Shown here piece by piece: positions 20,309 to 55,646 of a stretch of 57,535 nt of DNA. The translations under genes and the position numbers were made by a program. The stretch is taken from positions 1-57,535 of the IMG/VR virus record IMGVR_UViG_3300027741_000074, one strand, 5' to 3'. Numbering within the stretch: the first letter of the stretch is position 1; each line of letters opens with the position of its first letter. This stretch comes from a virus (taxonomy: Duplodnaviria > Caudoviricetes). Under the pieces are notes generated by a model. It was not told where the DNA came from, did not search any database, and saw nothing but the letters and a program-made list of their open reading frames with translations.

Positions 20309-22564
20309 TTAGCTAGTTGCGTTGCCTGAAAGCTTCAATGCGCGTTCAGCATCCTTCAAAGCAAGATCCTGATCTGCTTTGGCTTGCTTAATCTGCATCT
20401 CGATCTGCGCCTTCTGTTGGGCAATCTGCATCTTGAGTTGATGCTCTTGCATCTTCATTTCCGTAGGAGACTGGCCTGCTGGCTGTCCTTCTTGCGGCTG
20501 CTGCCCTTCGGCTTGACCTGCTTCCATAGCCTTGCGTTGCTCGGCTTGCAGCTTACGGTTGAAGTTAGTGATGATCTCTTGCGCGATCTGCATCAGTTGG
20601 TTGGACTCAGCGACTTGCGCCCTTGCCGACGGATCGGCAGAGAGGTACTGCAAGTGTTCCCCGCAATGCTGGAAGATTGCCTCAACCAACGGAAGAGCTT
20701 GCATCGGATCGACCTCGCCTGAATCAATGCCAGCAACAAGTTGTTGCAGCAAAGGATTGTGGATGCGTAGGTGCATTCCGTGTAGCTCACTATCGAGAAC
20801 GGTAACAGGTTGGCCTGATTGCATTGCTTGATTTTCGAGCATAGCGATCTTCGCATCAACAGTCATTCGTGGCTCTGGATTTGCTGGCGCGTAGCGATCA
20901 ACAAGGTCACGACCAACCCGTTCCGAAGTGATGTCGCGGATCAAGTTACGACGACCTACTTCATCGTAGCTGCCAGCAATTTGATTAAGCTCACGGAGAG
21001 CGAGCAAACGGTTGGCAGCAGAGCCAGCACCGATTGCCCTTACAGCAACAGTCTTGTTGTGATCAATCGACTTGATGATCTGTTCGGTCACGCCACGTTC
21101 AGCGCAACGGGCAAAGAATGCCTTAGTACGATCATTACGCCTAGGACTGCTCACAGCGCGTCGTACGACCTCCTTGAGGAGTCGTGACCAGCTAGAGTAA
21201 AACAGATTGATTGTAGAGCCTGTCAGGCGTGAAGAAACGGCAAGGTCGTGTTCGGTCTGAAGCTGGTTACGGTAAGGGGAAGATTGGTTGCCGTACGTCG
21301 ATACCAAATCGACATTGGCTGCAAGCTGACTCTGCAAATCGTTTAGTGCAGGAACCATGTTCTGAGACAGGTTCGGTGCAGCCTTCTCGATCACCTTCAC
21401 GTTAGGTGAGAGGATCGAATACGGACCGTACATCGTAAACGACAAGTCCTCAAGCGCACGCTGCGTCTCAGGCTGGATCATCACTGCGCCAGACATCATC
21501 GCGCTATCGAGCATCTGGCAACGGATACGGTTGCTTGTCTGGACGTGATTGAAAATGCGGTGGCCTAAGCCTCTAACAGAATGGTACGTGCCGTTTGTTC
21601 CTACGCCGTACGAGAACATCACATAGGCTTGTTCGGGCTTGTCAAACATCGACGTTTGTTTGAACATGAAGGACTTCGGAGTCTCTTCGGCAAACATGAG
21701 TAGCGAGACAGAGCCATCGAACTCACGCACCCACATGTGAACGACTTGAACGGTCGTGTTCTCTAAACCAGTATAGAGGTCATTGTTCTTCATCTCGCGT
21801 TGGGTCACTTCCCAATCTGCGTAGGTGTTGCTGCCGTTACGGCCTGACGTGCGTGCGTTCTTGACGATGACACGTTTGACTTCCTCTACGTCCCAGCCGA
21901 TCTTCGCTGCGGCTTCAGGATTCTTGATGAAGGCGTAGAGTTCGTGTAAGAGGTACTGACGACGGGCACAAGCCACTTCGACGTACTCTTCGGATGCAGG
22001 GGTTTGACGTGGGATCAGGAAGTCGCCCAAACCACAAACACGGAAGTTCCAATTGTGTGGGTCTTCAAAGTAAGCAACGCCCACGCCGTGCTTTGTGAAC
22101 TCAGTGCAAAGCCTAAGGTAGCTGCTGTGGAACTCGGGCCACTCTCGCAACATCTGCGTCAACTCTTCGGCAATAATGTCGTTCGCGTCTTGCCGTGCGG
22201 CAGGATCGCCCAACTGCGTCTTGACGTGCATCAGCTTGTCAAGCGAGGTGTAGAGGTCAACGTAGGCGGACATCGACACGTCAAGGTATCGCTGCGCCTC
22301 GCCGAAGTTTAGGTTCGTACGATTGCCTTGGCCTGTCGAGTACAGAACCCTTTGATCATACGGCGGCGCACCATCAAACATAGCATCAGTACGCGCACGA
22401 TTACTTGAAGACTTTTCATCTGCTTTTCGGAGTGTGTCGTAAATCGAACGCGCAGCTTTCACGTCACGCAACCGCGATTCAGGCGGCGTAAGCGTATCGG
22501 GATCAAGGTTCAACAAGTCAAACTCGTTGAGACCTGAAGGTGTCACTGGCGGATTATTCGTCAC
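20309..22564 (-). CDS. Portal protein
   Basis: 751 aa, first gene of the head operon, with a long Gln-rich C-terminal coiled coil (barrel-like) as in P22-type portals. Confidence 0.75.
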   Translation of the reverse strand: MTNNPPVTPSGLNEFDLLNLDPDTLTPPESRLRDVKAARSIYDTLRKADEKSSSNRARTDAMFDGAPPYDQRVLYSTGQGNRTNLNFGEAQRYLDVSMSAYVDLYTSLDKLMHVKTQLGDPAARQDANDIIAEELTQMLREWPEFHSSYLRLCTEFTKHGVGVAYFEDPHNWNFRVCGLGDFLIPRQTPASEEYVEVACARRQYLLHELYAFIKNPEAAAKIGWDVEEVKRVIVKNARTSGRNGSNTYADWEVTQREMKNNDLYTGLENTTVQVVHMWVREFDGSVSLLMFAEETPKSFMFKQTSMFDKPEQAYVMFSYGVGTNGTYHSVRGLGHRIFNHVQTSNRIRCQMLDSAMMSGAVMIQPETQRALEDLSFTMYGPYSILSPNVKVIEKAAPNLSQNMVPALNDLQSQLAANVDLVSTYGNQSSPYRNQLQTEHDLAVSSRLTGSTINLFYSSWSRLLKEVVRRAVSSPRRNDRTKAFFARCAERGVTEQIIKSIDHNKTVAVRAIGAGSAANRLLALRELNQIAGSYDEVGRRNLIRDITSERVGRDLVDRYAPANPEPRMTVDAKIAMLENQAMQSGQPVTVLDSELHGMHLRIHNPLLQQLVAGIDSGEVDPMQALPLVEAIFQHCGEHLQYLSADPSARAQVAESNQLMQIAQEIITNFNRKLQAEQRKAMEAGQAEGQQPQEGQPAGQSPTEMKMQEHQLKMQIAQQKAQIEMQIKQAKADQDLALKDAERALKLSGNATS

Positions 22565-23372: not shown

Positions 23373-23508
23373 GTCCTCTCAAATTATTTCTGACTGACAC
23401 TTTAACCCTGAATCCTGTATCCTAAACCCGCGATGCGAACCGTGCGTCTGCGTCTGCGCGAGTGCTTAAATCTGCTAGATAACTGTTAGATCTAACATAA
23501 TACTAACA

Positions 23509-23538
23509 GAAAAGGCACCACTTTCGTGATGCCTTTTC
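23509..23538 (-). terminator. Intrinsic terminator with GAAA tetraloop
   Basis: The - strand reads GAAAAGGCATCAC-GAAA-GTGGTGCCTTTTC, downstream of ORF 23585-23812. Confidence 0.7.
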
Positions 23539-23584
23539 GCTGATTCCTGTATCTTGCTACAGGATTAAGGGTACAGGGTGCAGG

Positions 23585-23812
23585 TTACGCGCTTTTCGCG
23601 TCGTTATAGCGTAACCGTTTGCGATCCAGTAGCTTCTGACGGTTTGTCAAGTAGTAATTTCGCTGATAATTGCGATTTTTTTCTTGCTTTTCAGGATTTA
23701 ACTCCGCTTCAAGCTCCCTTTTTCGGCGCAAATCGCCCTTTTTGGCTTCATAATACGCCTTCTGGTACTCTTTGCGAGCCTCTTTGTTCCTATCGTAGTA
23801 GCTTTTGTCCAT
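23585..23812 (-). CDS. Small basic helical protein (YY..N.E repeats, nucleic-acid-binding-like)
   Basis: MDKSYYDRNKEARKEYQKAYYEAKK...; has a promoter upstream and a terminator downstream. Confidence 0.6.
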   Translation of the reverse strand: MDKSYYDRNKEARKEYQKAYYEAKKGDLRRKRELEAELNPEKQEKNRNYQRNYYLTNRQKLLDRKRLRYNDAKSA

Positions 23813-23835
23813 AGAATTTTGCGTGTGCGACCCCC

Positions 23836-23864
23836 ATTCTGCCAATTCTTTGCTTATCCGTCAA
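23836..23864 (-). promoter_or_regulatory. sigma70-like promoter TTGACG-N17-CAGAAT (TGn extension)
   Basis: 17-nt spacer, 23 nt upstream of ATG 23812. Confidence 0.5.
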
Positions 23865-24114
23865 CCTCAATTATTTTTTTCTCACGTAGTTACCTATCGG
23901 TACCGCCCCTGCAAAAAACATGCCACCCCCACCCGTAGCCTGTACCCTGATTCCTGCATCTTGTGCCTGATTCCGATGACGGATACAGGATACAGGGTTC
24001 TTGCTGCATGATCCATGCGCGGGGCGAGGACGGGGCTATTCCCTAGTCTATGAAGGGTGACGCTAGTTAAGTTACCTAACTAACAAACAAACAAACACAC
24101 AAACACACAAACGT

Positions 24115-24624
24115 ATGAAAGCAAACAAAGCAAACAAAGCAAACAAAGCAAACAAAGCAAACAAAGCAAACAAAGCAAACAAAGCAAACAAAGCAAACAA
24201 AGCAAACAAAGCAAACAAAGTAAATAGATATGCAAAGGTGGACTTCTCATCACTTCTCCCACTTATGGCGGGAGTGTGGGAAAGAGAAACGAGTTTGATG
24301 CAAGCGTTCCTTGCGATGTGGAATAAGCAGAAAGATAAGTCGGCTCCGTTAGAATTCCGAGAAGTCTTCTGTGCTTTCGCGCTAGCCAAGGGCTATTGTG
24401 ATAAGTGGGCAGGTGCTGTTGCCCGCGATGCTGATAGAGAATTGTTCGGTATCCGTGGCGTAAGATCCGACAAGGGCAAGCCGAAGGACAAGCCAAAGGC
24501 GGACAAGCCAAAGGCGGACAAGCCTGCGAGTGGCAAGGTTACGCCGCAACAGCTTGCTCACATGGCGAAGGCATTAGATCAAGAAGGCATCGACACCCTC
24601 ATCGGTCTTCTCGTCGCAATGTAA
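24115..24624 (+). CDS. First early-region gene; basic protein with an N-terminal (KAN)11 repeat
   Basis: 169 aa with an A/C-rich leader and internal DKPKA repeats. Confidence 0.65.
   Translation: MKANKANKANKANKANKANKANKANKANKANKANKVNRYAKVDFSSLLPLMAGVWERETSLMQAFLAMWNKQKDKSAPLEFREVFCAFALAKGYCDKWAGAVARDADRELFGIRGVRSDKGKPKDKPKADKPKADKPASGKVTPQQLAHMAKALDQEGIDTLIGLLVAM
24118..24216 (+). repeat. Tandem repeat (AAAGCAAAC)x11
   Basis: Eleven perfect 9-bp units counted directly, followed by a degenerate AAAGTAAAT. Confidence 0.95.
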
Positions 24625-24690
24625 CCTGAATCCTGTAACCTGAATCCTGTAACCTGTAACCTGTAACCTGAATCCGTAATCCTGCATCCT
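24625..24690 (+). repeat. Heptamer array CCTG(A/T/C)A(T/A)
   Basis: CCTGAAT CCTGTAA CCTGAAT CCTGTAA CCTGTAA CCTGTAA CCTGAAT CCGTAAT CCTGCAT. Confidence 0.9.
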
Positions 24691-24776
24691 TAGTTAGGTT
24701 GACTAACTAAGGATGCTGATTGCCTGCTGCTCTTAGTTAGGTAACTAACTAAGGGCATAAGGCAGTTAGTAAACTG
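24684..24776 (+). repeat. Intergenic hairpin unit 1 (hairpins A+B+C)
   Basis: A: GCATCCTTAGTTAG-gttga-CTAACTAAGGATGC. B: TGATTGCCT-gc-TGCTCTTAGTTAG-gtaa-CTAACTAAGGGCA-ta-AGGCAGTTA. C: GCAGTT-agta-AACTGC. Confidence 0.9.
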
Positions 24777-24786
24777 CTATTAAAAT

Positions 24787-25005
24787 ATGAAAACAAAAAT
24801 GAATCCACCTCACTATGAGGTAGCTAGAGGTGCTTCTACCTACGGGATAGAGTACCTAATCCAAGAGGGTATGTTCGACTTCTCAAGAAGAAGCATACCC
24901 AAGAAGTTCAAGGGTCGTAAGTCTGCTGAGCGAGAGGCACGTAAGTACGCTGGTGCTTGGGTCGAAGCGGGTATGCGTCCGTATAGACGTTGGGAGGGAT
25001 ACTGA
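24787..25005 (+). CDS. Small early hypothetical protein
   Basis: 72 aa; its TGA stop is the first 3 nt of hairpin B in unit 2. Confidence 0.7.
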   Translation: MKTKMNPPHYEVARGASTYGIEYLIQEGMFDFSRRSIPKKFKGRKSAEREARKYAGAWVEAGMRPYRRWEGY

Positions 25006-25066
25006 TTGCCCGTTGCTCTTATTCCGCTCCAACGGAATAAGGGCATAGGGCAGTTAGTAACCTGCA
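25003..25066 (+). repeat. Intergenic hairpin unit 2 (B+C)
   Basis: TGATTGCCC-gt-TGCTCTTATTCCG-ctccaa-CGGAATAAGGGCA-ta-GGGCAGTTA. Confidence 0.9.
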
Positions 25067-25073
25067 ACATAAC

Positions 25074-25241
25074 ATGACAACAAATAGAATAGACAACGCA
25101 ATCAAATACCTCATGTCTCGCAATCCAAAGGCATTGCTAGACATGACAACCCCAACCCCAATCCTCGGTCGCCAGATCGTGCTGTGGCTACCTAAGAAGG
25201 TATCCAGTCTGGCATTCGACTTGCCGCCTCTCAAGCGGTGA
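25074..25241 (+). CDS. Small early hypothetical protein (55 aa, MTTNRIDNAIKYLMSRNPK...)
   Basis: Hand-translated; fills the space between units 2 and 3, and its TGA stop starts unit 3. Confidence 0.65.
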   Translation: MTTNRIDNAIKYLMSRNPKALLDMTTPTPILGRQIVLWLPKKVSSLAFDLPPLKR

Positions 25242-25303
25242 TTGCCCGTTGCTCTTAGTTAGCTCACCTAACTAAGGGCATAGGACAGTTCATGTTGGAC
25301 TGC
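25239..25303 (+). repeat. Intergenic hairpin unit 3 (B+C)
   Basis: TGATTGCCC-gt-TGCTCTTAGTTAG-ctcac-CTAACTAAGGGCA-ta-GGACAGTTCA. Confidence 0.9.
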
Positions 25304-25327
25304 AACTAAACCATAATAAATAAAAAT

Positions 25328-25564
25328 ATGAAAAACAAAGAATGTAGTTTACGACAACTCATTATTGAATCCCTGACAGATGCCCTTGCAAAGGGGAAAT
25401 GCGAATGGGAAGCTGCGTTCCCTGAGGGCTTACCCATTGATGTACCCATTGATGACAAGGGTTATATCCAATACTCACGGATTCCAAGGTCATTTGTCGA
25501 AAAGCAAAACGACGAAACCCTGTTTCGTCTTTATACGGCCAACTGCTGTTTAGCTTTTCGCTGA
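25328..25564 (+). CDS. Small early hypothetical protein
   Basis: 78 aa between units 3 and 4, with an A-rich leader. Confidence 0.7.
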   Translation: MKNKECSLRQLIIESLTDALAKGKCEWEAAFPEGLPIDVPIDDKGYIQYSRIPRSFVEKQNDETLFRLYTANCCLAFR

Positions 25565-25569
25565 ACCCT

Positions 25570-25668
25570 GTATCCTTAGTTAGTCAACCTAACTAAGGAT
25601 ACTGATTGCCTGCTGCTCTTAGTTAGGTAACTAACTAACTAAGGGCACAAGGCAGTTATGAAGACTGC
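25570..25668 (+). repeat. Intergenic hairpin unit 4 (A+B+C)
   Basis: A: GTATCCTTAGTTAG-tcaac-CTAACTAAGGATAC. B: TGATTGCCT-gc-TGCTCTTAGTTAG-gtaactaa-CTAACTAAGGGCA-ca-AGGCAGTTA. Confidence 0.9.
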
Positions 25669-25695
25669 AACTAAACCATAAATACAAATAGAAAT

Positions 25696-26817
25696 ATGAA
25701 AACAAGAGCACAGATAGAAATCACACACGATGACATCGAAGGTGATGTCATCGACATTATCAATGAAGCGATCTACGAAGCGCGGGGAATCCGCGTCTCG
25801 CTTGACGCTTTCTTATTCAATAGCAAGACTCGCTTGCTATCTCACTCATTGGAAGTCCGTGACAACTGCGGTTCCATAAGCAGTTACTGCTTCCATGAGC
25901 ATGTGAAGCTCTCATACCGAGGGTTGCCGATTACTCTTCACCTACCGCCAGTCATGTCAGAAGGTAGACAGGTAGATTATTACGCCACAGATCCACAGTC
26001 TTTAGTTGACTATGCCCGTTGGGCTAACGTCGTGTTACCCTTCAACCCTTTAGACGAGAAGAGCGGCCTTCGGTTTGTCTCGCGTCATACCACAAGCGTT
26101 TACAGTTCCGACAATCACGCTAGGTTCACTGACCCAAAGCGCATTGTCTCTTGCGTCAACGACTTGATGAAGCACCTAAATAGAGAAGCCTTGAGTCAGC
26201 TCGTCACTAACCCCATGCTTGCTCGCATCGAGTCCGCGATTGCCAATCAAGGTTATCATTGTGAGTTCATCTCCGACGATGTTACCATCTCAGAGGTCTA
26301 CTACAACGAGAGCAGCACGACGAACAAGTTCGTTAGCTGCATGGCAGGCAAGTCTGCTGCATGGTTTGAGATCTACGATGATCTTCAATCACATGACCGT
26401 CTGACGATGGTTCGCCTAGTCAATGGTAGCGGCGAGTTTAAGGGTCGCGCCTTGTGCTGGAAAGGTAGTAATCCAGATGACTTGTATCTCGATAGGCTCT
26501 ACGTTCCTGAGTCCAACGGCGTGCAGCTCGTCGATGCGTTAGATGCTTTCAAGAAGTTCTGCGCTGAGAATAACATCCGCAAGACTACGTTCAGCAAGAC
26601 TGCTGAGTCCATCGGCTTAGAGTACAAGCCGATCTCCATTGAGGTGCCGCAACGTCTCAACTTCTACGATTACTTCCCGTATGCTGATTCCATGTATCGG
26701 TTCTGTTCCGATGGCAAGCTACGCAACCACTCGAACTATCCTTCAGGTGTGTATCTTGTATCGGAGTTGCGTTGTACTGACGGCACCGTCGAAGGTAACG
26801 ACGATCAAGATGTTTAA
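25696..26817 (+). CDS. Conserved phage protein with SCM...GRALxW...DRLY motifs (function unknown)
   Basis: FVSCMAGK, GRALCW, YLDRLY and FPYADS motifs, which I recall from phage early genes next to M28 peptidases. Confidence 0.55.
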   Translation: MKTRAQIEITHDDIEGDVIDIINEAIYEARGIRVSLDAFLFNSKTRLLSHSLEVRDNCGSISSYCFHEHVKLSYRGLPITLHLPPVMSEGRQVDYYATDPQSLVDYARWANVVLPFNPLDEKSGLRFVSRHTTSVYSSDNHARFTDPKRIVSCVNDLMKHLNREALSQLVTNPMLARIESAIANQGYHCEFISDDVTISEVYYNESSTTNKFVSCMAGKSAAWFEIYDDLQSHDRLTMVRLVNGSGEFKGRALCWKGSNPDDLYLDRLYVPESNGVQLVDALDAFKKFCAENNIRKTTFSKTAESIGLEYKPISIEVPQRLNFYDYFPYADSMYRFCSDGKLRNHSNYPSGVYLVSELRCTDGTVEGNDDQDV

Positions 26818-26830
26818 CAGAATAACCAAT

Positions 26831-27847
26831 ATGAAAATCAATACACAACTATTACTCGATGTCTTCGCAATCCAAAATCCATCACGCAATGTTGCGTGTA
26901 ACAATGAGGCAATGCGTGTCATCCAATCCCTGATTCCTGAATCCTGCACCGTGGTTCGGTGTGCTGGCAACATGATCGTTCGCAAAGGTGACACGTCCAA
27001 GATCCATCCGTTCTTCGTTGCGCACATGGATCAGGTACATGACTATGTGCCGTTCATGCGGCTCAGCATCGACAACAATATCCTGTCAGCGTATGACGGC
27101 AACGGCGCGCAATGCGGGACGGGCGGTGACGACAAGTGTGGCATCTATCTAGCACTCGAAATGCTACATCGTTTGCCCACTGTATCCTGTGTCTTCGTCC
27201 GTGACGAGGAGGTCGGTTGCCTAGGCTCGGCTATCGTGCCGATGGAGTGGTTCGCCAATGCGGCCTTTGTCCTGCAAGCTGACCGCAACAATCGTACCTT
27301 CGACATCATCCGCGATACTAACGGTATGTGCTGCGCTAGTGACGACTTCATGGATGCGCTGTTCGACCTGCCTGTTGCATCGAAGCACGGAGAGGATACA
27401 GGTAGCATCACTGACATTGGCGAGCTAGCAAGACGCAAGCTGCACGTCTCTTGTGTCAACATCTCATCAGGCTACCACCGCCCGCATCAGTCAAAGGAGA
27501 TCGTCAACCTTATCGAGTTGGCTATTGCTTGTGAGCTAGCCTTGCAGGCCGCGACTAACTACGGACATAAGCAGTGGTTGCACACCGCTACTAGCTCGAA
27601 CAATAACTATGGATACGAGAGCCACTTCAAGAAGTACAGTCGCTTCGATGACTTCGACAATGATTATCTAGCCTCTGATGATGTAACCGAAGACGTGTTC
27701 GAGCTTACGCCAGAACGCGAGTCGCTTATCAGTATGCTCGAAGATTTAGGTTATGACCGCCACTTCGATTTACTGGAGGCGTACGACACCGACGAGTTGA
27801 TCAAGTGGGTAGAAGGAGAGACCAGAAGGGGGACAACCTTAGTCTAA
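26831..27847 (+). CDS. M28/M20-family zinc peptidase
   Basis: Metal-ligand motifs AHMD, GGDDKCG, DEEVG, QADR and GYHRPH. Start moved to ATG 26831. Confidence 0.85.
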   Translation: MKINTQLLLDVFAIQNPSRNVACNNEAMRVIQSLIPESCTVVRCAGNMIVRKGDTSKIHPFFVAHMDQVHDYVPFMRLSIDNNILSAYDGNGAQCGTGGDDKCGIYLALEMLHRLPTVSCVFVRDEEVGCLGSAIVPMEWFANAAFVLQADRNNRTFDIIRDTNGMCCASDDFMDALFDLPVASKHGEDTGSITDIGELARRKLHVSCVNISSGYHRPHQSKEIVNLIELAIACELALQAATNYGHKQWLHTATSSNNNYGYESHFKKYSRFDDFDNDYLASDDVTEDVFELTPERESLISMLEDLGYDRHFDLLEAYDTDELIKWVEGETRRGTTLV

Positions 27848-34003: not shown

Positions 34004-34098
34004 TGGGTATGCTATTGCTCCTCCTAATCGGAGGCTGGTTCCTATGGATTGTAGCCTGCTTCCTACTTGAGATCATCCATTACTTAATGAATGGTTGA
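34003..34098 (+). CDS. 31-aa membrane peptide (MGMLLLLLIGGWFLWIVACFLLEIIHYLMNG)
   Basis: TAATG-coupled, single hydrophobic helix; overlaps the 3' end of the giant gene. Confidence 0.45.
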   Translation: MGMLLLLLIGGWFLWIVACFLLEIIHYLMNG

Positions 34099-37000
34099 GC
34101 TACGTTATAGTTGATGGGTTTATTAGGGACAGTAACTCTAATAAGCTCATCAACTAATGGCATAGGATCTTGCTCTCCGCCTCTAGTCTTGTTCTCGATT
34201 ATCTTCTTGAACGCTGCTTCGTTCGGAACCCATGAGTAGTTCTCACCTGCAATGGCATAGCCTAAGCGTTGGTTGCTGATGCGTGCCCTCTTGCCAGTCG
34301 TTATCAAACCTTCCTCAGTTGAGCCGAGTGACTTCATACCTTGGATGAAATCATAGAGGCGACCTTGCGTGACGTTAGTGGCTGACTGGTACTTGCCCAC
34401 TTGGTCTCCGACATTACCAACATCGAAGCCCTTCGCAGAGTAGATCGGATTGAGCAATGCCAAGTCTTCATCCATTGCACTTCTGATCTTACTCATTGCA
34501 CGATACTCGATATCCGACTTCTTCATTATAGTAGGTCGCGCTCCTGTAAGCTCACCTGCAATGAGGAGTCCTGCATCCTGTTGCCCGTATCGGAATACTT
34601 CATAACCCTTCTTAGCAATTGACGGGAGGAATGCACTCTTCCCTAAGTGTGCGAGTAGTTTTCCGTATGCTTGAACGACGTTGTCGGACTGCAAAGCGAT
34701 TGGGTTACCAAAGCCATCTTGGTTCTTTGACACTTCGAACAGTGCGTTGGCTGCGATCTGTGTGCCGATAAGGTCCTTAGCGATGTACTCTCCGATGCCT
34801 TTGACATTACCTTGTGCACCTAACTTAACAATATCTGTAAGCTGACTGTGTGGTAAGATATTGGACATATCAATAACTTGAATGCCATCCTTGCCAACCA
34901 ATCGGGCGAACACACCGTGATTCTTTTGCCAATCAGGCAAGCCCTCACGCAGTGTGCTAAGTTCTTCATTGGTAAGTACACGACCCAATGCTTTATCTTC
35001 ATCGTCCTTACCCCCTGAAAGTAGGCTGAACAGCGTACCGAATACGAGACCGAATGCAGTGCCGCCCCCTGCAACAGTAGAAGAGAAACCAACTAAGCGT
35101 TTAATGCCGCGAGCTTTCATCACGTCATTGCCTGAGTTGATCTCCTCCATTGCAAGAGGTACGGTATTGATCATTGTGCGAAGCACTTCCGATTTCCATC
35201 GGACGAAAGGCAGAACGATCATAGCGAACGGAGACTTATTGAAAGACTTCGCAACGCTAACTTGATCGGAGTGCGTTGGGAACGTGAGCTTAACCTTACG
35301 GGCAGCTCTCACCTCCAATGAACTAAGAGACTCAGTACCGTATGCTTTCTTAAGCTGGTCAAGTTCATACATATAAGCATTAACTTTGAACGCGCTATCA
35401 ATAACATTGTTCAGACTAGCAAGAAACTCGACTGTAACTTTAGTACCTTTCTTTAGGTTAAACCTTTTAGCAATCTTGCTGATATCACCTGTAGCCTGTA
35501 CCTCTACGAGTTCATTAAGTAGGTCATCTAGTTGCTCGTCCACTCCAGCAGTAAAGCCGTTAAGCATATCCATCGCCATACGACCACGAGTTTCGTCACG
35601 TAAAATCTGAAGCTCAGTCAATCGACGGATCGTGTCACGTTGTTCTTGTGATTCCGCAGCAAGTATGTTTGCCCTAATTGATAGTCTCGCTGCTTCTCTA
35701 GCGTACAATGGATTGATAATACCTTGTGCTGCGGATAATGCCATGCCGCCTAAGATGTTACGAGGGTAGAAACCAACGGAACCTAAGGTCTGCGTTGTGA
35801 CAGCCGCGCCTGATACCCACGCTAATCCTTTACCAATGCTATTGATTAGCTCCATTGAACGGGTATCCTGATCCCTATTCTTCGGTCCGAGTTCCTGTCT
35901 GACAGCAGCAGCTACGTCACTGCGAACATAGAGTCCTGCAAGCTCACCTAACTCAGCATTCTGACTTGGATGGAACAACAACTCCATACTATCTGTGCGC
36001 TCGCGGCTCGCTAGTCCAGTCTTAACAGCCTCCCTTGCAAAGTTGCGAAGGAACCTATCGTTGGCAGCAAGTCGTCCGACACTGTAGATAGTACGAACAG
36101 CATTTTCAAACGGATCAGTTACCTCACCTAAGAGTTCTCGTAGAGGCGCATCGAAATCTTTTTTGTGAAGTAAAAGATTAACGTCGCGCTTAACGGTATT
36201 GAAAGTGCCGAGTTCTTTAGACTCTGCTGCTTGTTCGTCTAGCTTCTTTAGATACTTGTCAAGATATGCAATAGTCTTACTCGCAACTTGTTCCTCAGTA
36301 AGCGTCTGCCCTTCTTGCTTTGCGTCAAAGAGAACCTCTGCTTTAAAGTGGTCAGCGGCAGCGGAGCGTAGCTTGTTGAAGTCAACGGTCTTGCCGTCAA
36401 TCTCAACAACCCCTCCCTTACTTGCAGCTAGCGACCAGCCTTCTGTTGTGAAGTAGTTGAAGGTACGTGTGAGGTACACGTCATTGGACTCATCGAAGTT
36501 AATGATTTGCTTATACTTGTTGATCTCTTGTCGGAACTCCACAAGGTAGTCTACTAACGTACCAAACCCTCTAGCCCTAAGTTGATTTTCCATTGCCATC
36601 TGCTCCTTGCGGAACTCAACGTAGAACTGATCGGCAATCGGTTGCGATAGTTTTGCCTCGTAGTCTTCAGCTAGTCTCGTAATGTTTGGGTCTTCAGCAT
36701 TGTCCGCTTTGAACTGGCGCACTTTGCGTTGCAGTTCTTTGCGTGCCTCGCCTTGTACAGCAGGAGCAGTAGTACCTAAGATGGTCCCGATGTCCTCGAT
36801 TGCAATGCCTGCACTGAGTGCTTCATCTCTCAGCTTAGGGTATTTCTTAGCGAAGTCTGACATTGTGTACTCAATACTTCCGAGAGACCCATCACGCTGA
36901 TTGATAAACCTACGCAACTCAAGTGGCATATCGTACATCTTCTCTTGCGCCTTCTTCCAGAACTCAGCAACCTTCGATGGGTTGGTAGATGCAATCGGCA

Positions 37001-40000
37001 GGTTGAAGCTGGTGCGATCCTCTTGTCCTTCAGCGATGTTGCCCTCGACGGCATTGATGAAGTGCGTCGTGTCACCTAACTCGCCTGCCGTTGATAGTTC
37101 AGGAGCAGGCAGTACGCCGCCGTTACGCAATGAGCGGAACTCACGCGATGCCATTGAGATCTTAGCGGCAGTGCTTGCCGTAGGGTTAGTAGCAAACTGA
37201 GCTTTTAGTTTAGTAACGAATGCTCTTACTGCTTCTACGAACTTAGCAAGTAGCGATGGGTTCGTGCGAAGGAATGCAAGGTTCTCCTCACGCGAACGAC
37301 CGACAGCGATGCGGGTCATCTCAGAGCGCACCCATTCAGCGGCGATGTCGGACTCCCTCAGTGCTCCTGATTCCAGATCAGCGGCGATCATTGCCTGACG
37401 TTTCGTGTAGTCAGACTCTGAGTTGGAGTAGAGCATATCAGCAACGAGACCACGCATACCCTCGCCCATGCCCTTTGCAATGTTTGCGAAGTCATCCTCA
37501 GTGAAAGTCCTGTAAGATGCTAAGTGCGCTAACTCTTCGTCAACGAAGGTGCGTACAGCAGAGCGTGCGTTAGCAGGAGTCAGGCCGTAGACGAGATCGT
37601 TGACCGTATCTGGGTTCACGATAATTGAATTAGGCTTAGAGCGTCGTGCGCCCAACTGACCTAACATCGTGTTGTCAAACTCAAGCGTGATACCTTCAGG
37701 CAGGATGCGTTGCATCTCGCTGACGACGTCTACTCTACCTGATGGTGTTGTAGTAGCTAAGAGAATTGCGTCACTACCTTCTGCCGCATTGCGTAGCGTC
37801 TGTTGGATCTTCTCAGCAGCTTTGAGTCTCGTGATGTTCGATGCCTTAGCGTTCTCCGACGGTACGTTAGGTAGCGTGCTTGCCCAACGTGAGTCCATGT
37901 TGAACGTGTTGGAGTGGGCGAGGGACATCTTCGTGAAGTCGAGAAGCTCATTGATTGCGTTGGCAGTCTGCGGTTTCGACTTCGCTTCAAACCCAAAGAT
38001 CGAAAGTACAGCGTCAATCATGCGGCGAAGGATCGTACGCTCTTGCGGTTTGGTAAGACCGTTCAGCAGCGGCGTAAACTCAGGCGCAGTAAGTGCATAC
38101 GTGACAAACTCTTCAAGACTCGACAGACCCAACTGCATCGTTGGATCAGTGTCGATCCCGTTCTTAATTGCGTTAGCCAATGCGAAGTTGCGGATCTGCT
38201 CAAGGCGTTGCACCGCTGCACTTTGTTGCGCCGTCGTAGGGTTGTTGATTACCTTGACGGTGACAGCATGGATCAGTTCGTGCAACAACACGTCAGCAAG
38301 ACCGCGACCGTTGTGCTCGCTAAGGTTAAGCAGAATCGTGTTATTCGACTTGTCGTATAGACCTGCAAAGCTCGCTTGCATATCGACAATGCCGATGTTC
38401 ACCGAACGGATAAGGTCTGGCGCAGCATTCAGGATAGATACGATGGCTTGCTGTTGTGCTGTGCCTCTATTGCCCAACACAGATAGTGCCCTAAGGATAC
38501 TGTTGGAGTCCTCTGATACGAGACCCAACTCGTTCATCATCCTGATGTTCTCCTGACGGGCAACTTCTCTGAGTGCTGGATCAAGAGTAGATAGGGAGAA
38601 GTCAATCGTCATGCGCTCAATTGAGCGAGTCTTTGGAAGTGCTCTGACAACTCCTTCGTTGGTCATCCGCGTTGCATAGTCAACGGCATTGGATGGGATC
38701 TCGGACTCGTAGGATACAGGACGTACCTTACTGAGTACCTTAGTCTGACCGCCTTCAGTTACTCGCGTCGGCAGTTCAGTTACTTCGACCGCATTTGGGT
38801 TGACATTTACCCCTCCAGTAATGGCACTAAGGCTCTCACCAAATTGTTGCAAATTCTGAGCGATCTCTTCAGGGGTTCTCGTTGTGGTCACCTCTTCAAA
38901 AAACTCGGAGGGCACAACGTCTACGGGATCTACATATGTTGTGAGTAGATCAGAACCAAATACATTAACACCGTTTGTGATTAAAGCGTTACGCAGATCT
39001 TCTTTTCGTTGGGTAGCAAATGCATCATACGCCTGTCTAACCTCAAGAGATTTGATGTACTTATCAACCCGACTCCGTTGTTCTGGAGTAAGTTTCGTTT
39101 TAAATCTAAGTTGAGCGGGATGGTTCTCCGTTGCTTTGGCAAGCCGTTCCCATTCAGGTAATGACATCAAATACTCAATACGCTTTACAGCAATATCAAT
39201 AACTTCTTTTGACTTATCTGAAAGTCTAGCTACATACTCACGGTTATTCTTGAGTTGTCGGAAACTTGATTCAATATCAAGTATTACCGAATCAAGTAAC
39301 TCGGCACCGTTACCTGTACGTTTATTGATCCCATCAATTTGGCTTTGCCTAAGTGCAATAGAGTTTTTTAATCCATCAATAATAGCCTGACCATTAAAGA
39401 TGATATGATACTTCAAGCTACTTAACTCATCGTACTTCTGCCTAAAGATTATTTTTTTATCTGAATCATTTGGTAGGCGCGGATCTTTTAGAGCTTTAAC
39501 ATATCTTGCAATTGCTTTGTCAATGCGCGATAGTTCTTTTGTACGTTCCTTTCGTCCTGACTTTTGAAGTTTCTCATAGTTGGATAGTTTTGTTTTTAAA
39601 GAGCCTATTTCGCCGTTGAGCGCATCTAGTTGTTCTTTAGTAAAACGAGAGATAATGCGATTTACAGTTCCGCTGTTATTCCAAAAATCAGTATTAGCTA
39701 GATTGAGTACATCTTCTCCTGCTTCAGGTTGGATGATAGCCTCTAATATCTTAAACCCATCGGAGATACGAGCACGAGCATCTTCGATAGTCTGAAGAGC
39801 GATGGCTTTTTCTTCTCCTAAGTTTGTAAGTGTGCCAGCCACTTTAGCTAAAGCCTTGTCCCTATTGGCTTGATACCTTTCAGCTTCTTCAATCGTAGTG
39901 ACATGCTGCCCTTTAGCTTCCGCCTCACGAACTCGTTTACCCTCCTCCACAATAACGAATCCTACTGGGGAAGCATTAGGTGGGGTTGGTGGGGAAGCAG

Positions 40001-43000
40001 GTGTTTTGTTCTCCCGCTCAGAAGGAGAACGCAGTGGCACTTGCACAAGTCTATTATCACGCGTCTCGATCATTACAGGAGGTAGCCAACCCTTCAGGAT
40101 CATTAGTCCTGCGGCTCTTTGTCCCACTTCTGTCTCAGACAGAAGAGCCATAGTTATATTTGCATAGCCATTGTTTGTCCTAAACAGGGAATCATCACTC
40201 AGTTTCTTTGCGAGCACACTGACAAGAACATCATCGGATATTTTTGCAAGTTCTGCTGGCGTGTCTAGCCCAACCATTTTTGCAATATCCCTAAAGGCTT
40301 TTCCTAATTCTTTATTTCCTTTTACAGTGTTCTCTAACTCAGCAGCGAGGAGTTGTCCTCGATCATGGAACACACTATCAAAAGGAGATAGGGCAACACC
40401 AAAACGCTCACTATAAGTATTATCTGTATAGTCATTTAGGGTTAAGCCCATCTCTCTACGCTGCTGGGTAGCGTCTAAAAGAATCTGCCAATCGGGCCTG
40501 CCTCCTGCAATTAAATCAGAAAACTCAAAGTCACCACCAAAGGTTTCTTGGAGAGCATCAATGCTTATTGAAGGTAGGTTCGTACTATCCGCTCTTTCGC
40601 GTTTTGCGTGTTTATTTGCAATTGTAAAGAAGTCTCTTCCTAGATTAGTCTTTGCTTTACCGTCAACAATTTGAGTTGTCGTAAGATATTTTCTAGGATC
40701 AGGCATCGTGTAAAACTTGCCTTCGATATTCGTGGCGTTTTGGAATAGGTACATTCCATACTGCTTCATTACAGATGTTGGGTCTGTGCCTTGGAAACCG
40801 ATACCCAATTTTACAATGTTATTGGCAATCGTTTTATCATCTAAGCCACTAAACATCTCCCTCACATAGTAGGTAAGGTTTGAATTCTTTACAGCATCAG
40901 TGAGATTATTGGAGTCTTCCTTGATTAAAAGTCTACGTAAATTTTGAGGTAAATCCCCAAACTCAATCTTGGTATCTGAGACATTAGTATCTATGGCTCT
41001 TGCGACTAGCTCTCTACCTTCTTCATTTTTAATTCGTGCTTTCCAGTCAAGAGACGCAATTACTTTTTTAACAACGTGTTGAGCTAGTCGATACTCATTA
41101 AGTTGGGAAGTAAAATCAACAAGGGCATCGCTTGCTGCGTCCTCTATACCTTCAGTTGTAAGCGGTAATTTAACATCTGGATTAGGACTATAAGCATTTG
41201 ATGTTAGGAATCGTGTAGCCCCATCAAATACTAATTTGATAAGACCTGATGTCCCTAAATCAAACTTTTTAATGTCCGACGGCTTAACCATATTATCCAC
41301 AAACAACTCTGCCCGAACATCGTATTTAGTCCTTCTATCTTTATCATCAGGATCTTCGCTGCTGTTGCGTCGAGTATCTAGTTTACTGCGGTACTGTCCG
41401 ATCAGTACAGGGTTATCCCTTGCAGGCTCAAAGTACCCGTCTACAGTAACGCCATCCGAAGCAACATGGATTGCAGGATTTAGAACTCCTTTGAAGCTTG
41501 CAGGAATTACAATACGTAATCCGTCAGCAATCTGTGCGCGTGTAATTTCAAGATCATTAGTGAATACGCCATACGTTACAGCTTCGTTATTTAGATAGCC
41601 TCTTTCAACAGGATAAAATTGATCAGTAAATTCTTGGCTGCGGACCATATCAAAAGCCGCTTTACCGATGTTGTATTTAGGTACATCTTTAACTTTCTTT
41701 CTTAGTTCAGCAATTTCCTTTTCAATTGTAGCAATCTGCGTTGACGCATTATAATTTTTAGCTTCGGCTTTTGTTTTTATGTTTGATAGCTCGACACGTT
41801 TAGACTCCAATTGAGAAGCTAGTTTGGCATTTACTTGTGTGCCTTGTGGCCCTTCAAATACGTATTTAACTGATCCTGTAGGCGGATATAGTTTATGTAC
41901 TCGCTCACGAAGTAAGTTATTCTTATCCTTAATGTATGCATTAGGATTAGCTACCTCTTGTCCTTCGTTCTCTACTCGCTCTATGATAGCTTCAGAGAAA
42001 GCGGGATATGTAAGCAAACCATTATTAGTAGTAAACATATTAGCTGCGGATGCAATAGTTGCACCCACAGTAGGAAGGTTTACTACTTGTCCTGATTGGA
42101 CAAGCTGGTTAAAGAAGTCCTCCTCAGTACTCACACGGAACTTATCTGCTGGATAGACTACTGACTTAGTCTTGAGTCCTACAGACGGCTCGATGATCTT
42201 ACCGAACTGTGCCTTACTACCTGATACAGGAACGAAGCCACCTTTGCCGAAGATTGATGCAGTAATCTGGTCTACCATCTCACGACGTAGTCCTTCTTGC
42301 AAATCATTACGCTCTTTGATTTCAGCAACTAACGAGGTAAGGGTATCCTTGATTGCTTGATTGGCTTCTGAACGAATGACTTTAAGTTCAGCTTGAACGC
42401 GAGCTTTGTCAGTACGACTCTTCTTGAGCGTTTCAATTCTACCATTCAACTCGTTGACGCGACCAACATAGCCGTTGACCAACGTCAAGAAACTTGTGAC
42501 CCGCTCGTCCAAAGGGATCTCAGGTTCGACTTCAGGCTCAGGCGCATTTGCAGCAGCCTTTGCCGCTGCTTTCTCTTCCTTAATAAACGCCTTAGCATTT
42601 GCTTCATTCTGCGATAGCTTCTTCTGGATCTCCTTAGAAGAAATATCCACGTTGCTAAGTGGGAAGTAAATCACATTGCCGTCCGCATCATTGAACTCGA
42701 TCTCACGAGTTTCTGGAATGTACTTAAATCCTGTAAGCGTTTGCCTTGTTAAAGGTCCTGTAGCTCCTTCAGCCTCTAGTCCTGCAACAATATCTACCGT
42801 CTTCAGCTTACCCTTTGAGATCAGGTAATGCAGGATATTGGTTACAGGATAGGGTTTAGGTTCTGGTTTTTGGAGTTGTTGAGTTACTTTGATCCCCTCC
42901 TTTTCAAGATCGTACTTAATGCTTTCAATATCACGTTCGTCAATGTATTCGCGCACAAGATCAATCCTATTACTTAGATTCCCATAGTAACTAAGAGTCT

Positions 43001-54587: not shown

Positions 54588-54763
54588 AAGAAGCAGCAAC
54601 ATTCTTCCTAATAGGGATCTTTGCCGCTTCAATAACGCTGACTACAATGAAAGAAGTAATAACCTTTGGCCTAATCTGGATCTTCATTGCCTTAGTTACT
54701 GCTACTCTGTGGCACGCAGCAGTTGGAGGAAACGATGACGATAACTACCCACCAAAAATATGA
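54584..54763 (+). CDS. 59-aa membrane protein with an internal duplication
   Basis: MKEAATFFLIGIFAA...MKEVITFGLIWIFIA...; ATGA overlaps at both ends. Hand-translated. Confidence 0.55.
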   Translation: MKEAATFFLIGIFAASITLTTMKEVITFGLIWIFIALVTATLWHAAVGGNDDDNYPPKI

Positions 54764-55425
54764 ACACACTAGAATTCAAACCATTCCCGAAAATGGCTCG
54801 CCTCCGCCGCGATTGCCTGATTACTGAAAAAATCGACGGCACGAACGCCAGTATCTATATTTGTCACTTAGACGAACAGGACAACAGAAACATTATTGAT
54901 GCGTGGGTTAGCGATAAAGACCACAGAGCTATAGCAATGTATGCAGGAAGTCGCACCCGCTGGATTAACCCCCAAAACGATAATTTTGGATTTGCTCAAT
55001 GGGTGAAAGAAAATCAAATTGCTTTGCGCGGATTAGGCGAAGGCCATCACTTTGGCGAGTGGTGGGGCAGCGGTATCCAGCGCGGCTACGGCTTTAAGAA
55101 CGGCGAGCGATTCTTCAGCCTTTTCAATGCGGCCCGTTGGGTTGAGCATGACCAGCCAACGTATGCAATCGAGCAGGACAATCCAAAGGCAGAACCAAAA
55201 TTCACCGAACACGCGCCTGTTTGCTGCAAGGTGGTTCCTGTACTGTATGATGGATTATTCAGCACTCTTGCCGCAAGAAGTGAATTAAACCGACTTGCGG
55301 ATTTGGGCAGCGTAGCTGCACCAGAATACATGAATCCAGAAGGCATTGTAGTGTACCACAAAGCTGCCGCTACTGGATTTAAGATGACTATTAAAGATGA
55401 CGATAAACCGAAAGGCAAACAATGA
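54760..55425 (+). CDS. ATP-dependent RNA ligase (Rnl2-like nucleotidyltransferase domain)
   Basis: Motif I TEKIDGTN, III FGEWWG.GIQ, IIIa FSLFN, IV PEGIVV, V FK. Confidence 0.85.
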   Translation: MNTLEFKPFPKMARLRRDCLITEKIDGTNASIYICHLDEQDNRNIIDAWVSDKDHRAIAMYAGSRTRWINPQNDNFGFAQWVKENQIALRGLGEGHHFGEWWGSGIQRGYGFKNGERFFSLFNAARWVEHDQPTYAIEQDNPKAEPKFTEHAPVCCKVVPVLYDGLFSTLAARSELNRLADLGSVAAPEYMNPEGIVVYHKAAATGFKMTIKDDDKPKGKQ

Positions 55426-55646
55426 ACACACAATACAATAAGGTATGAAGAAAGTTAAGATCCACAAGTTATTATTCAAACAGAGTCATCAGTTAGCGCA
55501 TCAAGATATAGACTATTTGTAGCAAAGACCGATTATGATCATGCAATCAAACGGATCAAAAGGCTTGAAGCCGTGCTTGAAGCAAAGCTAGAATCCGAAG
55601 ATGCTTTTTGGACACGATATGCTCCAGCAGAATTCACATCTACTTT

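Follow-up and report, generated by a model that had tools for sequence, protein, structure and literature searches.

Hairpin units between early genes of an uncultured phage hold one RNA strand complementary to two alternative partners and resemble the RNase III sites of T7

The stretch of DNA considered here, which we call the window, comprises 57,535 nucleotides, positions 1 to 57,535 of a Caudoviricetes virus record (IMGVR_UViG_3300027741_000074). Between the first small genes of this phage lie four hairpin units on the plus strand (24716-24777, 25000-25065, 25240-25302 and 25603-25668), and their place between five ORFs of the same strand can be seen from the ORFs alone. All four window units share one design, in which a lower stem of 9-12 bp, a 2x2 internal loop and an upper stem of 13 bp form a big hairpin, followed by a small hairpin, an A/C-rich leader and then an ATG. 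We refer to the 5' and 3' arms of the big hairpin's lower stem as L5 and L3, and to the next 4-7 nt after L3 as S3, and it is the pairing of L3 with S3 that makes the small hairpin. The small stems of the four copies are located exactly where an initial annotation of this DNA had placed them, and the spacers from small stem to ATG are 8, 8, 19 and 27 nt in units 1-4. The two folds are also mutually exclusive as that annotation had proposed, since the small stem takes its 5' arm from within L3 (Table 1).

Table 1. Positions of the hairpin units and associated features in the window
Feature	Position	Strand	Details
Early gene block	24115-26817	+	ORFs 24115-24624, 24787-25005, 25074-25241, 25328-25564, 25696-26817; punctuated by units
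Accessory hairpin A1	24684-24716	+	perfect 14-bp stem GCATCCTTAGTTAG / CTAACTAAGGATGC; immediately 5' of unit 1
Unit 1 big hairpin	24716-24769	+	lower stem 24716-24725 / 24760-24769, 10 bp, 2 G.U; 2x2 internal loop 24726-27 / 24758-59; upper stem 24728-24740 / 24745-24757; from inverted-repeat scan, folding and covariation
Unit 1 small hairpin	24761-24778	+	(G)GCAGTT-agta-AACTGC(T); GCAGTT 24762-24767, loop AGTA, AACTGC 24772-24777, plus G24761.U24778 pair; dG -8.2; 0/300 shuffles as good; ATG 24787 of 72-aa ORF
Unit 2 big hairpin	25000-25059	+	12-bp lower stem 25000-25011 / 25048-25059; upper stem 25014-25026 / 25033-25045; stop TGA 25003-25005 of ORF 24787-25005 in 5' arm
Unit 2 small hairpin	25050-25065	+	GCAG-ttagtaac-CTGC, 4 bp; GCAG 25050-25053, CTGC 25062-25065; dG -4.5; ATG 25074
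Unit 3 big hairpin	25240-25290	+	lower stem 25240-25247 / 25283-25290, weakened by C.A mismatch; upper stem 25250-25262 / 25268-25280; stop TGA 25239-25241 of ORF 25074-25241 at 5' edge
Unit 3 small hairpin	25286-25302	+	CAGTTCA-tgt-TGGACTG, 7 bp, one U.G; CAGTTCA 25286-25292, loop TGT, TGGACTG 25296-25302; ATG 25328
Accessory hairpin A2	25570-25602	+	perfect 14-bp stem; immediately 5' of unit 4
Unit 4 big hairpin	25603-25658	+	lower stem 25603-25611 / 25650-25658; internal loop 25612-13 / 25648-49; upper stem 25614-25626 / 25635-25647
Unit 4 small hairpin	25652-25668	+	GCAGTT-atgaa-GACTGC, 6 bp, one U.G; GCAGTT 25652-25657, GACTGC 25663-25668; ATG 25696 of 373-aa ORF
Giant ORF	34080-46769	-	4229 aa

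The upper sequence of accessory hairpin A1 is identical to the upper stem of the big hairpin, and GTTAG/CTAAC is common to three of the units and both accessory hairpins, with TTCCG/CGGAA in its place in unit 2. The TGA embedded in the hairpin had been read as the stop of the upstream ORF, and this is correct for just two of the copies, 2 and 3; the upstream ORF of copies 1 and 4 stops earlier and another 14-bp hairpin intervenes. None of the five ORFs of the block has a Shine-Dalgarno motif, their leaders being A/C-rich, and domain and profile scans placed the early ORFs in no recognizable family. The ORF after unit 2 is conserved in a relative (L007), and the 373-aa ORF has two weak matches only in the phage collection, where we found no DNA match to 24000-27000 and no protein match to the terminase. 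Among viral contigs the exact unit motif had 0 matches and the 373-aa ORF no relatives.

The unit motif, TGATTGCCYGYTGCTCTTA, occurs four times in the window, always on the plus strand, where 0.03 occurrences are expected, and four were reached in 0 of 100 shuffles. For the small stems, the first 13 nt of the truncated RNA were held fixed and the remainder was shuffled, and the fraction of shuffles with a fold as good as or better than the native one was 0.000-0.004 for copy 1, 0.268-0.287 for copy 2, 0.022-0.023 for copy 3 and 0.013-0.018 for copy 4. Given its fraction, the 4-bp stem of copy 2 is not significant when taken alone. As the four window copies are paralogous and thus not independent, the decisive test is that of conservation and covariation in relatives, and it came out positive. 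For this we added 40 units from related uncultured phages to the four of the window, giving 44, of which the first 28 form an earlier subset. We dropped the matches of the search model R1 that were of another kind (L016_3268, L016_2735, L010_1278, L012_4179, L012_1629 and L009_3964), one locus identical to another (L006, to L005), two apparent duplicates (L054 and L055, of L053 and L012), the cut-off match L051:1-63 and every antisense match.

In the MAFFT alignment of 28 units, 91.6% of the 700 cells of the big hairpin are paired as compared to 30-51% with slid partners, and compensatory changes on both sides are seen for 12 of its 25 pairs. None of 500 shuffles matched its percentage paired, its pairs or cells with two-sided change, or its covariation score. 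Across units the lower stem measures 9-12 bp and the upper stem 13-14 bp, with no U-tract. Together they give the sense RNA a hairpin of about two helical turns (about 20-22 bp or more). The internal loop is 2x2, sometimes 3x2, in 42 of the 44 units and missing in the other 2; two relatives have a 22-bp helix without interruption.

The small stem is just as persistent. All 44 homologous units retain the ACTGC block singled out by the initial annotation, and there is covariation between it and L3 at three positions, so the lack of conservation or covariation that was to count against the claim is not what we find. At those same three positions of the 44 units L3 covaries with L5 as well. At index 2 the L5/L3/S3 triples are U/A/U in 18 units, C/G/C in 17 and A/U/A in 7, and at indices 4 and 5 locus L056 contributes extra C/G/C, G/C/G and U/A/U variants, although the independent events behind the small-stem covariation are few, about two for index 2 plus a further two confined to phage L056. 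Small-stem cells are 94.6% paired, versus 23-30% when slid, and RNAalifold predicts the four outer pairs of the small hairpin from 28 truncated RNAs. Wobble pairs are informative about the strand, as G.U far exceeds A.C in the big stem (83 versus 3 cells) and in the small stem (16 versus 2), from which it follows that both stems act in sense RNA. In a swap test the mean was -7.59 kcal/mol for the native combination of L3 and S3, -7.39 for chimeras of the same type and -5.19 for those across types, and a foreign L3 type paired with S3 at least as well as the native one in 7 of 28 units. Both stems exist, are conserved, covary, act on the sense strand and exclude each other, and the data support the small stem as a conserved alternative to the base of the big stem.

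Some of the comparative results are weaker. Taken individually, the small stem folds better than 95% of shuffles in 26 of the 44 units, the shuffle fraction being above 0.05 in 18, and in one unit (L007_3550) it is broken by one A.C mismatch. RNAalifold returned no consensus pairs from the MAFFT alignment of all 44 truncated RNAs, which is explained by the S3 of five L051 units lying one column out of register. Sense rows of a model-fitted alignment have 83.7% of the small helix paired, a figure that we discount as weak evidence because antisense rows reach 74.1%. This last number, the paralogy of the window units and the individually non-significant 4-bp stems of window copy 2 and many relatives are what one would expect if the small stem were functionless, S3 having come with the repeat as an incomplete copy of L5 and a short complementarity beside a GC-rich arm being easy to find. 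We give little credence to this explanation, since S3 tracks L3 at three positions despite the free divergence of loops and leaders, the stem takes seven or more sequence forms whose loops measure 3-9 nt, its start position is constant in 44 of 44 units, and an analogue of unrelated sequence exists in a distant relative (L018).

We compared full and 5'-truncated folds, as the initial annotation had suggested. Intact RNA prefers the big fold in 27 of 28 units (ddG -14.8 to +0.7), and therefore the small hairpin requires that L5 be removed or covered, while the truncated RNA forms the small hairpin in 44 of 44. In all 44 this hairpin begins 0-4 nt past the 3' end of the upper stem, a constancy in keeping with a hairpin that would become 5'-terminal once the internal loop is cut. 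The commonest small hairpin has 4 bp (15 of 44 units) and is weaker than the lower stem by some 6 kcal/mol (ddG about -6). In a second, long class, with 8-10 bp, small hairpin and lower stem are almost equal in energy (ddG -0.5 to -2.4, once +0.7), and in window unit 3 the big and small folds differ by -0.2 kcal/mol.

This near balance could be used by a switch that works in uncut RNA, in which lower stem and small hairpin interchange, either at equilibrium or when a ribosome terminates in L5, and so tune translation of the next gene or nuclease access. The small hairpin of window unit 3 is indeed present already in the minimum free energy (MFE) fold of the intact RNA. Among the first 28 units, the stop of an ORF of at least 25 aa lies in L5 or at most 5 nt away in 21, and in 15 it is the conserved TGA itself. 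However, no ORF ends at L5 in the remaining 7, among them two of the four window units, and there is nothing for the switch to mask or unmask, as leader and ATG are unpaired under both folds. The 13-14 bp upper stem separates the stop from the next start in either state. The commonest, 4-bp form uses just the four loop-proximal bases of L3, so the distal part would be left as a toehold for the return of L5 and make this form a poor trap once the ribosome leaves. The upstream stop is no argument for a switch either, given that T7 RNase III sites also have one in the lower stem. We consider a switch of this kind unlikely. The alternative offered in the initial annotation, that a ribosome on the TGA flips the structure and couples translation, has the 21 of 28 stops in its favor, but the 7 units without one and a start that is open in both folds leave it weakly supported.

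To our minds the best explanation is that the units are T7-type, RNase III-like intercistronic processing sites with a built-in protective hairpin for the 5' end, and on the sequence analysis we rate the chance of this being right as about even. They would serve as processing signals of a polycistronic early transcript, with a helix of about 23-26 bp, usually interrupted 2x2, like the T7 early sites. A double-strand-specific endonuclease would cut in or beside the internal loop, and this would most likely be host RNase III, an assignment drawn solely from the likeness to T7. We infer not only the enzyme but also the cut, its position and the protective effect of the small hairpin. The upstream mRNA would retain the upper stem as a 3' hairpin, while the freed L3 would refold onto S3 into a small hairpin 1-4 nt from the new 5'-monophosphate end. 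There it would shield the downstream mRNA against 5'-end-dependent decay, and the unstructured A/C-rich leader and ATG would remain open to ribosomes.

The likeness to the T7 early RNase III sites (R0.3, R0.5, R1, R1.1 and R1.3) is one of architecture, with no likeness of sequence. Both are long hairpins between genes of an early operon, a presumed one in the case of the units, with an upper and a lower stem split by an internal loop, an upper-stem sequence common to the sites of one genome and the next start codon a few tens of nucleotides downstream. T7 genes 0.4 and 0.7 have their stop codons within the 5' arm of a lower stem, as do the upstream ORFs of many of the units. The idealized substrate of E. 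coli RNase III is given as 22 bp in the pertinent section of PMC3867540, and according to relevant sections of PMC3867540 and PMC6121014, loops or mismatches at the target lead to a single-strand cut that leaves a stabilizing 3' hairpin, as at the T7 sites; for the present units cleavage is predicted. The units differ in having a 13-14 bp upper stem and a symmetric 2x2 loop, missing in 2 of 44, as opposed to the asymmetric 4/5 loop of T7 R1.1 (PMC6121014, in its account of that site), and in that no Shine-Dalgarno motif follows. With a loop so small and symmetric, and sometimes missing, a cut of both strands or elsewhere in the helix is possible, and such a double-strand or displaced cut could remove part of L3. 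In MFE folds of five T7 intergenic stretches, a comparison that is not exhaustive, we found none in which the 3' arm of a lower stem is used again by another hairpin.

The big hairpin may alternatively be bound or cut by a sequence-specific protein that is not RNase III, such as an early product of the phage or a further nuclease or RNA-binding protein of the host, with the small hairpin again serving the downstream fragment. Throughout the 44 units the upper stem keeps its CUUA/UAAG and the lower stem its GC/GC with little or no variation while the adjoining pairs covary, upper-stem variants are homogenized within each genome, and early ORFs that belong to no recognizable family could include such a protein. 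But an upper-stem sequence common to the sites is found in T7 as well, which makes this conservation unspecific, and a helix of about two turns is what RNase III requires. Among the window ORFs scanned we found no nuclease or RNA-binding domain, no phage RNase III and no RNA polymerase. This possibility therefore strikes us as quite unlikely.

A transcription boundary is another way to account for the arrangement. The big hairpin would then end or stabilize the upstream transcript and a promoter in or behind it would start a new one at the small hairpin, possibly an N4-type promoter. In N4 the virion RNA polymerase uses template-strand DNA hairpins of 5-7 bp with a 3-nt loop. Like these, the small hairpins immediately precede early genes, and the phage has a giant ORF whose 4229 aa are a size that virion RNA polymerases are known to have. 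Some have 3-nt loops (TGT in window unit 3, CGT in L051, TGG in the long class), and a transcript beginning at L3 would likewise be without L5. However, the unit stem is one of the sense strand, where G.U outnumbers A.C 16 to 2 and a template-strand DNA hairpin would show A.C mismatches; its loops vary from 3 to 9 nt, and the giant ORF lacks a DxDxD motif and any noteworthy match in Pfam or PHROG. An N4-type promoter was rejected on these grounds. Covariation of L5 with L3 through G.U pairs also indicates that RNA holding both arms is under selection. Candidates of the more usual kinds were rejected too, as there is no sigma-70-like site inside the units, and a consensus scan for intrinsic terminators flags none of the four big hairpins, no T-run following the units. 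On the plus strand that scan has a single hit within the units, a stem of 5 bp in unit 3 (25234-25250). We regard a transcription boundary as highly improbable.

The refolding has a parallel in hok-type mRNA, where removal of one RNA end frees a partner strand for an alternative helix with a new function. There the trigger is 3' trimming and the outcome is activated toxin translation, with no dsRNA-type site and no repeated units, so that the two are alike in processing-triggered refolding and unlike in trigger, outcome, dsRNA-type site and repeats. A self-cleaving ribozyme or other known RNA family was rejected, with 0 Rfam matches at gathering in the whole window. Four matches fall below threshold (E 0.068-0.48), to miRNA-precursor hairpins and to sok, the latter at chance level (E 0.48, 16.5 bits versus a gathering score of 59).

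Stabilizing stem-loops at the 5' terminus of the E. coli ompA and papA mRNAs were reportedly the subject of work by Emory et al. in 1992 and by Bouvet and Belasco in 1992. As a general rule, 5'-terminal stabilizers of this kind tolerate only a few unpaired 5' nucleotides. A B. subtilis counterpart comes from the early RNA of phage SP82 (Hue et al. 1995, as named in a passage of PMC7509114). In these systems too an element at the extreme 5' end blocks 5'-end-dependent decay. They differ from the units in that ompA/papA-type elements sit at primary 5' ends and SP82 acts via ribosome binding to a purine-rich site, whereas the hairpin of a unit would form only once a cut frees one arm of another helix. 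Ribosome-based 5' stabilizers are unavailable to the hosts, because these use no Shine-Dalgarno sites. A precedent for the principle, that a cut in a long hairpin leaves a stable short 5' hairpin, is S. aureus cspA, where RNase III cuts in the long 5'-UTR hairpin and the half-life of the processed RNA, which is better translated, rises from less than 2.5 min to more than 16 min (PMC3386247, in the part devoted to this transcript). It is a single chromosomal gene with a Shine-Dalgarno-dependent start, unlike the repeated intercistronic module described here, and the account of cspA in that part of PMC3386247 describes no three-way covariation. A non-exhaustive search of the full text of articles brought up no description of an intercistronic phage hairpin that contains its own alternative 5' hairpin.

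The units represent a conserved RNA family of uncultured phages that is absent from Rfam, and the comparative evidence is unusually clear in that one strand stays complementary to two alternative partners. The T7 sites are the textbook case of intercistronic processing and secure the upstream product only. If the cut is confirmed, the units would provide a natural way to stabilize both products of a single cleavage, and builders of synthetic operons would gain a compact element for keeping genes apart. More tentatively, each unit may be a self-contained, two-sided mRNA insulator cassette, in which one cut caps both products, by the upper stem at the 3' end and by the refold at the 5' end, and the strength of the back-up stem sets the share of cutting at each junction and hence the ratio of early proteins, without Shine-Dalgarno sites.

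In relatives, no back-up stem accompanies the hairpin that precedes the first early gene, which is represented by four homologous model matches that we dropped. The search model R1 had no match in five further records (four fragments at 66-69% and the complete L018 record), and at loci with a portal identity of at most 65% there was no R1 match and, by inverted-repeat scan, no comparable long hairpins. The distant relative L018, with 61% portal identity, has two units of the same design and unrelated sequence, in the order ...AAGGACAC, then GGAC-acaa-GUCC, then the leader and AUG.

The window contains exactly four copies of the motif TGATTGCCYGYTGCTCTTA, on the plus strand only (0.03 expected by chance; four reached in 0 of 100 shuffles), and every copy starts a long hairpin. 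The window, which comprises an uncultured virus's complete record of 57,535 bp, also encodes terminase and DNA polymerase; no named relative was found in the phage collection searched. Its early block on the plus strand, four small ORFs followed by a 373-aa ORF, is preceded by about 900 nt of non-coding DNA. Each big hairpin has a lower stem of 9-12 bp (CUGAUUGCCY / RGGCAGUUAG, including G.U pairs), which a 2x2 internal loop separates from an upper stem of 13 bp. The upper stem of unit 2 has TTCCG/CGGAA versus GTTAG/CTAAC in the other units, thus both arms have changed together. An additional perfect 14-bp hairpin lies upstream of units 1 and 4. The initial annotation had proposed that a small hairpin before the next ATG is exclusive with the base of the big one. 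On rereading the sequence its positions were exact in all four units, and its 5' arm falls within L3, the lower stem's 3' arm, so that the two folds do exclude each other. In constrained folds, blocking S3, the 4-7 nt that follow L3, gave the big fold, and blocking the lower stem's 5' arm (L5) yielded the upper stem together with the small hairpin. For units 1 to 4 the big fold is favoured by 7.8, 14.8, 0.2 and 5.9 kcal/mol, respectively, and in either fold the leader and ATG stay single-stranded.

A portal-based search yielded 14 viral loci, on which a covariance model built on the four window units was run. In nine of them it detected numerous copies on the sense strand, always within a block of small genes upstream of a portal gene that lies on the opposite strand. 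It gave no match in five other records, which are four fragments and the complete but distant L018. A metagenome scan with the portal alignment gave additional loci (L040-L113), with further units found by the model in L051, L052, L053, L056 and L060. Our count of distinct units is 44, made up of the window's 4 and 40 from relatives; it leaves out six model matches of another kind, duplicates, one cut-off match and all antisense matches.

Both helices exist, exclude each other and are selected in the sense RNA. When the first 28 units are aligned with plain MAFFT, the big hairpin has standard pairs in 91.6% of 700 cells versus 30-51% with partners slid by 1-3 columns. Both sides have changed in 12 of its 25 pairs (75 cells), and 0 of 500 column shuffles match its percentage paired, its both-side-changed pairs or cells, or its covariation score. 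It has 83 G.U cells against 3 A.C cells, and is therefore selected in gene-sense RNA rather than in antisense RNA or as a palindrome in DNA.

In the same alignment the small hairpin, described by 10 pairs, is 87% paired versus 29-42% when slid, and the 6-pair stem of the initial annotation is 70.8% paired. From 28 truncated RNAs that begin past the upper stem, RNAalifold predicted the small hairpin's four outer pairs, which are 94.6% paired versus 23-30% when slid. Among 23 distinct rows, one of these pairs occurs as G-C (8 rows), A-U (6) and U-A (5). G.U exceeds A.C here as well (16 versus 2). The stem takes many forms, among them GCAGUU-agua-AACUGC, CAGUUCA-ugu-UGGACUG, GCAGUU-cgu-AACUGC, GCGG-uucauaac-CCGC, stems of 8-10 bp with a UGG loop, and in L056 GCAGGCA-ugu-UGCCUGC, GCAGU-gcuu-ACUGC and GCAGCA-aucc-UGCUGC. 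All 44 truncated RNAs fold a hairpin close to the end of the upper stem: its first pair follows after 3 nt in 33 units, after 4 nt in 9 and after 0 nt in 2, and 26 of the 44 fold better than 95% of their own shuffles. Stability tends to rise with distance from the ATG (Spearman -0.46, n = 41), which is indicative only since the units are related. RNAalifold gave no consensus on the 44-row MAFFT alignment of truncated RNAs because S3 of five L051 units sits one column out of register. In a model-fitted alignment the small helix is paired in 83.7% of sense cells (221/264) versus 18.6-48.1% when slid, a value to which we give little weight because antisense rows reach 74.1%. That the small stem has no function we consider improbable.

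The partners of L3 were then compared across the 44 units, taking the L5 partner from the S3-blocked fold and the S3 partner from the L5-blocked fold. At L3 index 2 the L5/L3/S3 triples are U/A/U (18), C/G/C (17) and A/U/A (7), with one C/G/U and one U/A/unpaired as exceptions; few independent events lie behind such triples, and drawing them from each sequence's own constrained fold biases them towards pairing. Index 4 is most commonly A/U/A, with C/G/C and G/C/G also occurring, and index 5 is A/U/A or G/U/A, plus G/C/G and U/A/U. The ACTGC block of the initial annotation, which is S3, therefore covaries with L3 at all three indices, and one strand is kept complementary to two alternative partners. 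A swap test is in agreement: the mean energy is -7.59 kcal/mol for native L3 and S3, against -7.39 for same-type and -5.19 for cross-type chimeras, and the native pair beats all cross-type partners in 21 of 28 units and fails to in 7.

Our preferred reading, to which we give about an even chance, is that each unit is a T7-type processing site with an added back-up 5' hairpin; it agrees with the anatomy, position, strand and covariation. We infer that a cut would occur within the big hairpin, as well as its place and enzyme, and the small 5' hairpin would protect the downstream RNA from 5'-end-dependent decay. Passages of a review of RNase III (PMC3867540) describe a T7 early precursor of about 7000 nt with five RNase III signals, an idealised RNase III substrate of 22 bp, cutting of just one strand where the target has loops or mismatches, and stabilisation of the product by the resulting 3' hairpin. 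The internal loop of T7 R1.1 appears as 4/5 and asymmetric in a section of PMC6121014, and what we propose for the downstream product has a precedent in S. aureus cspA, as portrayed in part of PMC3386247. When the five stretches between genes in T7's early region were folded, the hairpins showed internal loops and a shared upper-stem sequence, and genes 0.4 and 0.7 have their stop codons (1431-1433 and 3098-3100) within the lower stem's 5' arm. Unlike the window units, none of these folds has a hairpin reusing the lower stem's 3' arm. Rfam holds no family matching the units. Action on them by another sequence-specific protein seems to us quite unlikely.

Among the first 28 units, the stop codon of an ORF of at least 25 aa lies in L5 or within 5 nt of it in 21; 15 units have the conserved TGA as this stop, and 7 are without such an ORF end. 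Stops so placed bear on the rival reading of a switch in uncut RNA, thrown by the terminating ribosome, which we regard as unlikely. Neither a U-tract nor a sigma-70-like promoter was found within the units, and their being a transcription boundary or a hairpin promoter is very improbable.

Coordinates of features in the window and in related loci
Feature	Coordinates	Strand	Remark
Portal gene	20309-22564	minus	
7-nt repeats	23400-23990		scattered over the non-coding stretch ahead of the early genes
Counterpart of relatives' first-early-gene hairpin	~24040-24085		folds weakly
First early ORF (start of block)	24115-24624	plus	
9-nt repeats	24119-24217		eleven tandem AAGCAAACA, encoding (KAN)n
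7-nt repeats	24620-24682		between first early ORF and A1
Accessory hairpin A1	24684-24716		
Unit 1	24716-24777	plus	motif at 24717
Unit 2	25000-25065	plus	motif at 25003
Unit 3	25240-25302	plus	motif at 25239
Accessory hairpin A2	25570-25602		
Unit 4	25603-25668	plus	motif at 25603
4229-aa ORF	34080-46769	minus	
ORF	54760-55425	plus	matches RNA_ligase (1.3e-11)
ORF	55608-56273	plus	resembles N-terminal domain of dATP/dGTP diphosphohydrolase (PF18909, 3.6e-29)
Unit without nearby ATG	L007:3532-3609	minus	last of its series
Unit without nearby ATG	L005:3348-3422	minus	
Unit without nearby ATG	L060:11-87	minus	last of its series
Unit without nearby ATG	L051:858-931	minus	
Unit without nearby ATG	L056:2544-2615	minus	fully paired ~22-bp helix
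Unit	L051:3089-3164	minus	fully paired ~22-bp helix
First-early-gene hairpin	L016:3268-3370	minus	
First-early-gene hairpin	L010:1278-1359	minus	
First-early-gene hairpin	L012:4179-4264	minus	
First-early-gene hairpin	L009:3964-4046	minus	
Two units of L018	L018:1903-2375	minus	61% portal identity

In unit 1 (24676-24722) GAUUGC of the lower stem's 5' arm can pair with GUAAUC upstream of A1, extending A1, so that a cut could re-pair both freed arms; no equivalent pairing was seen in the fold of unit 4. In the two fully paired helices compensating bases close the internal loop. The five units without a nearby ATG are followed by GCAAGUGAG/GCAAUGGG and another hairpin, with the next long ORF beginning at least 42-43 nt downstream. 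The hairpins ahead of the first early gene share the CUUAUUCGG/CCGAAUAAG upper stem with the units and have a longer, different lower part; no back-up stem is evident in these four.

The two units of L018 are unrelated in sequence to those of the window and lie in the same place. Their layout is a hairpin, a longer hairpin GUGUCCUU...AAGGACAC, GGAC-acaa-GUCC, an A/C-rich leader and AUG, and the long hairpin's 3' foot is followed by its own complement as in the window units. The truncated RNAs form the 4-bp GGAC/GUCC stem at -5.3 kcal/mol (7 and 6 of 200 shuffles are as good), and L018 counts as one weak extra case because its two copies are nearly identical.

Across the whole window, a Shine-Dalgarno-like purine run is absent before all 37 ORF starts inspected. 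G is scarce in the leaders, which are A/C/U-rich, and this suggests a host whose translation starts do not depend on Shine-Dalgarno sites. For the 4229-aa ORF, Pfam gave nothing at E 0.01 or below and PHROG no more than two matches, both at chance level (E 0.033, 0.066); it has no DxDxD motif. The matches of the two ORFs at 54760-56273 together hint at nucleotide-pool or base-modification functions. The 7-nt repeats are CCTGTAA / CCTGAAT / CCTGATT, and a similar run lies upstream of a unit in L017. The first early ORF begins with its 9-nt repeats, and first ORFs in relatives are likewise K/N/Q-rich.
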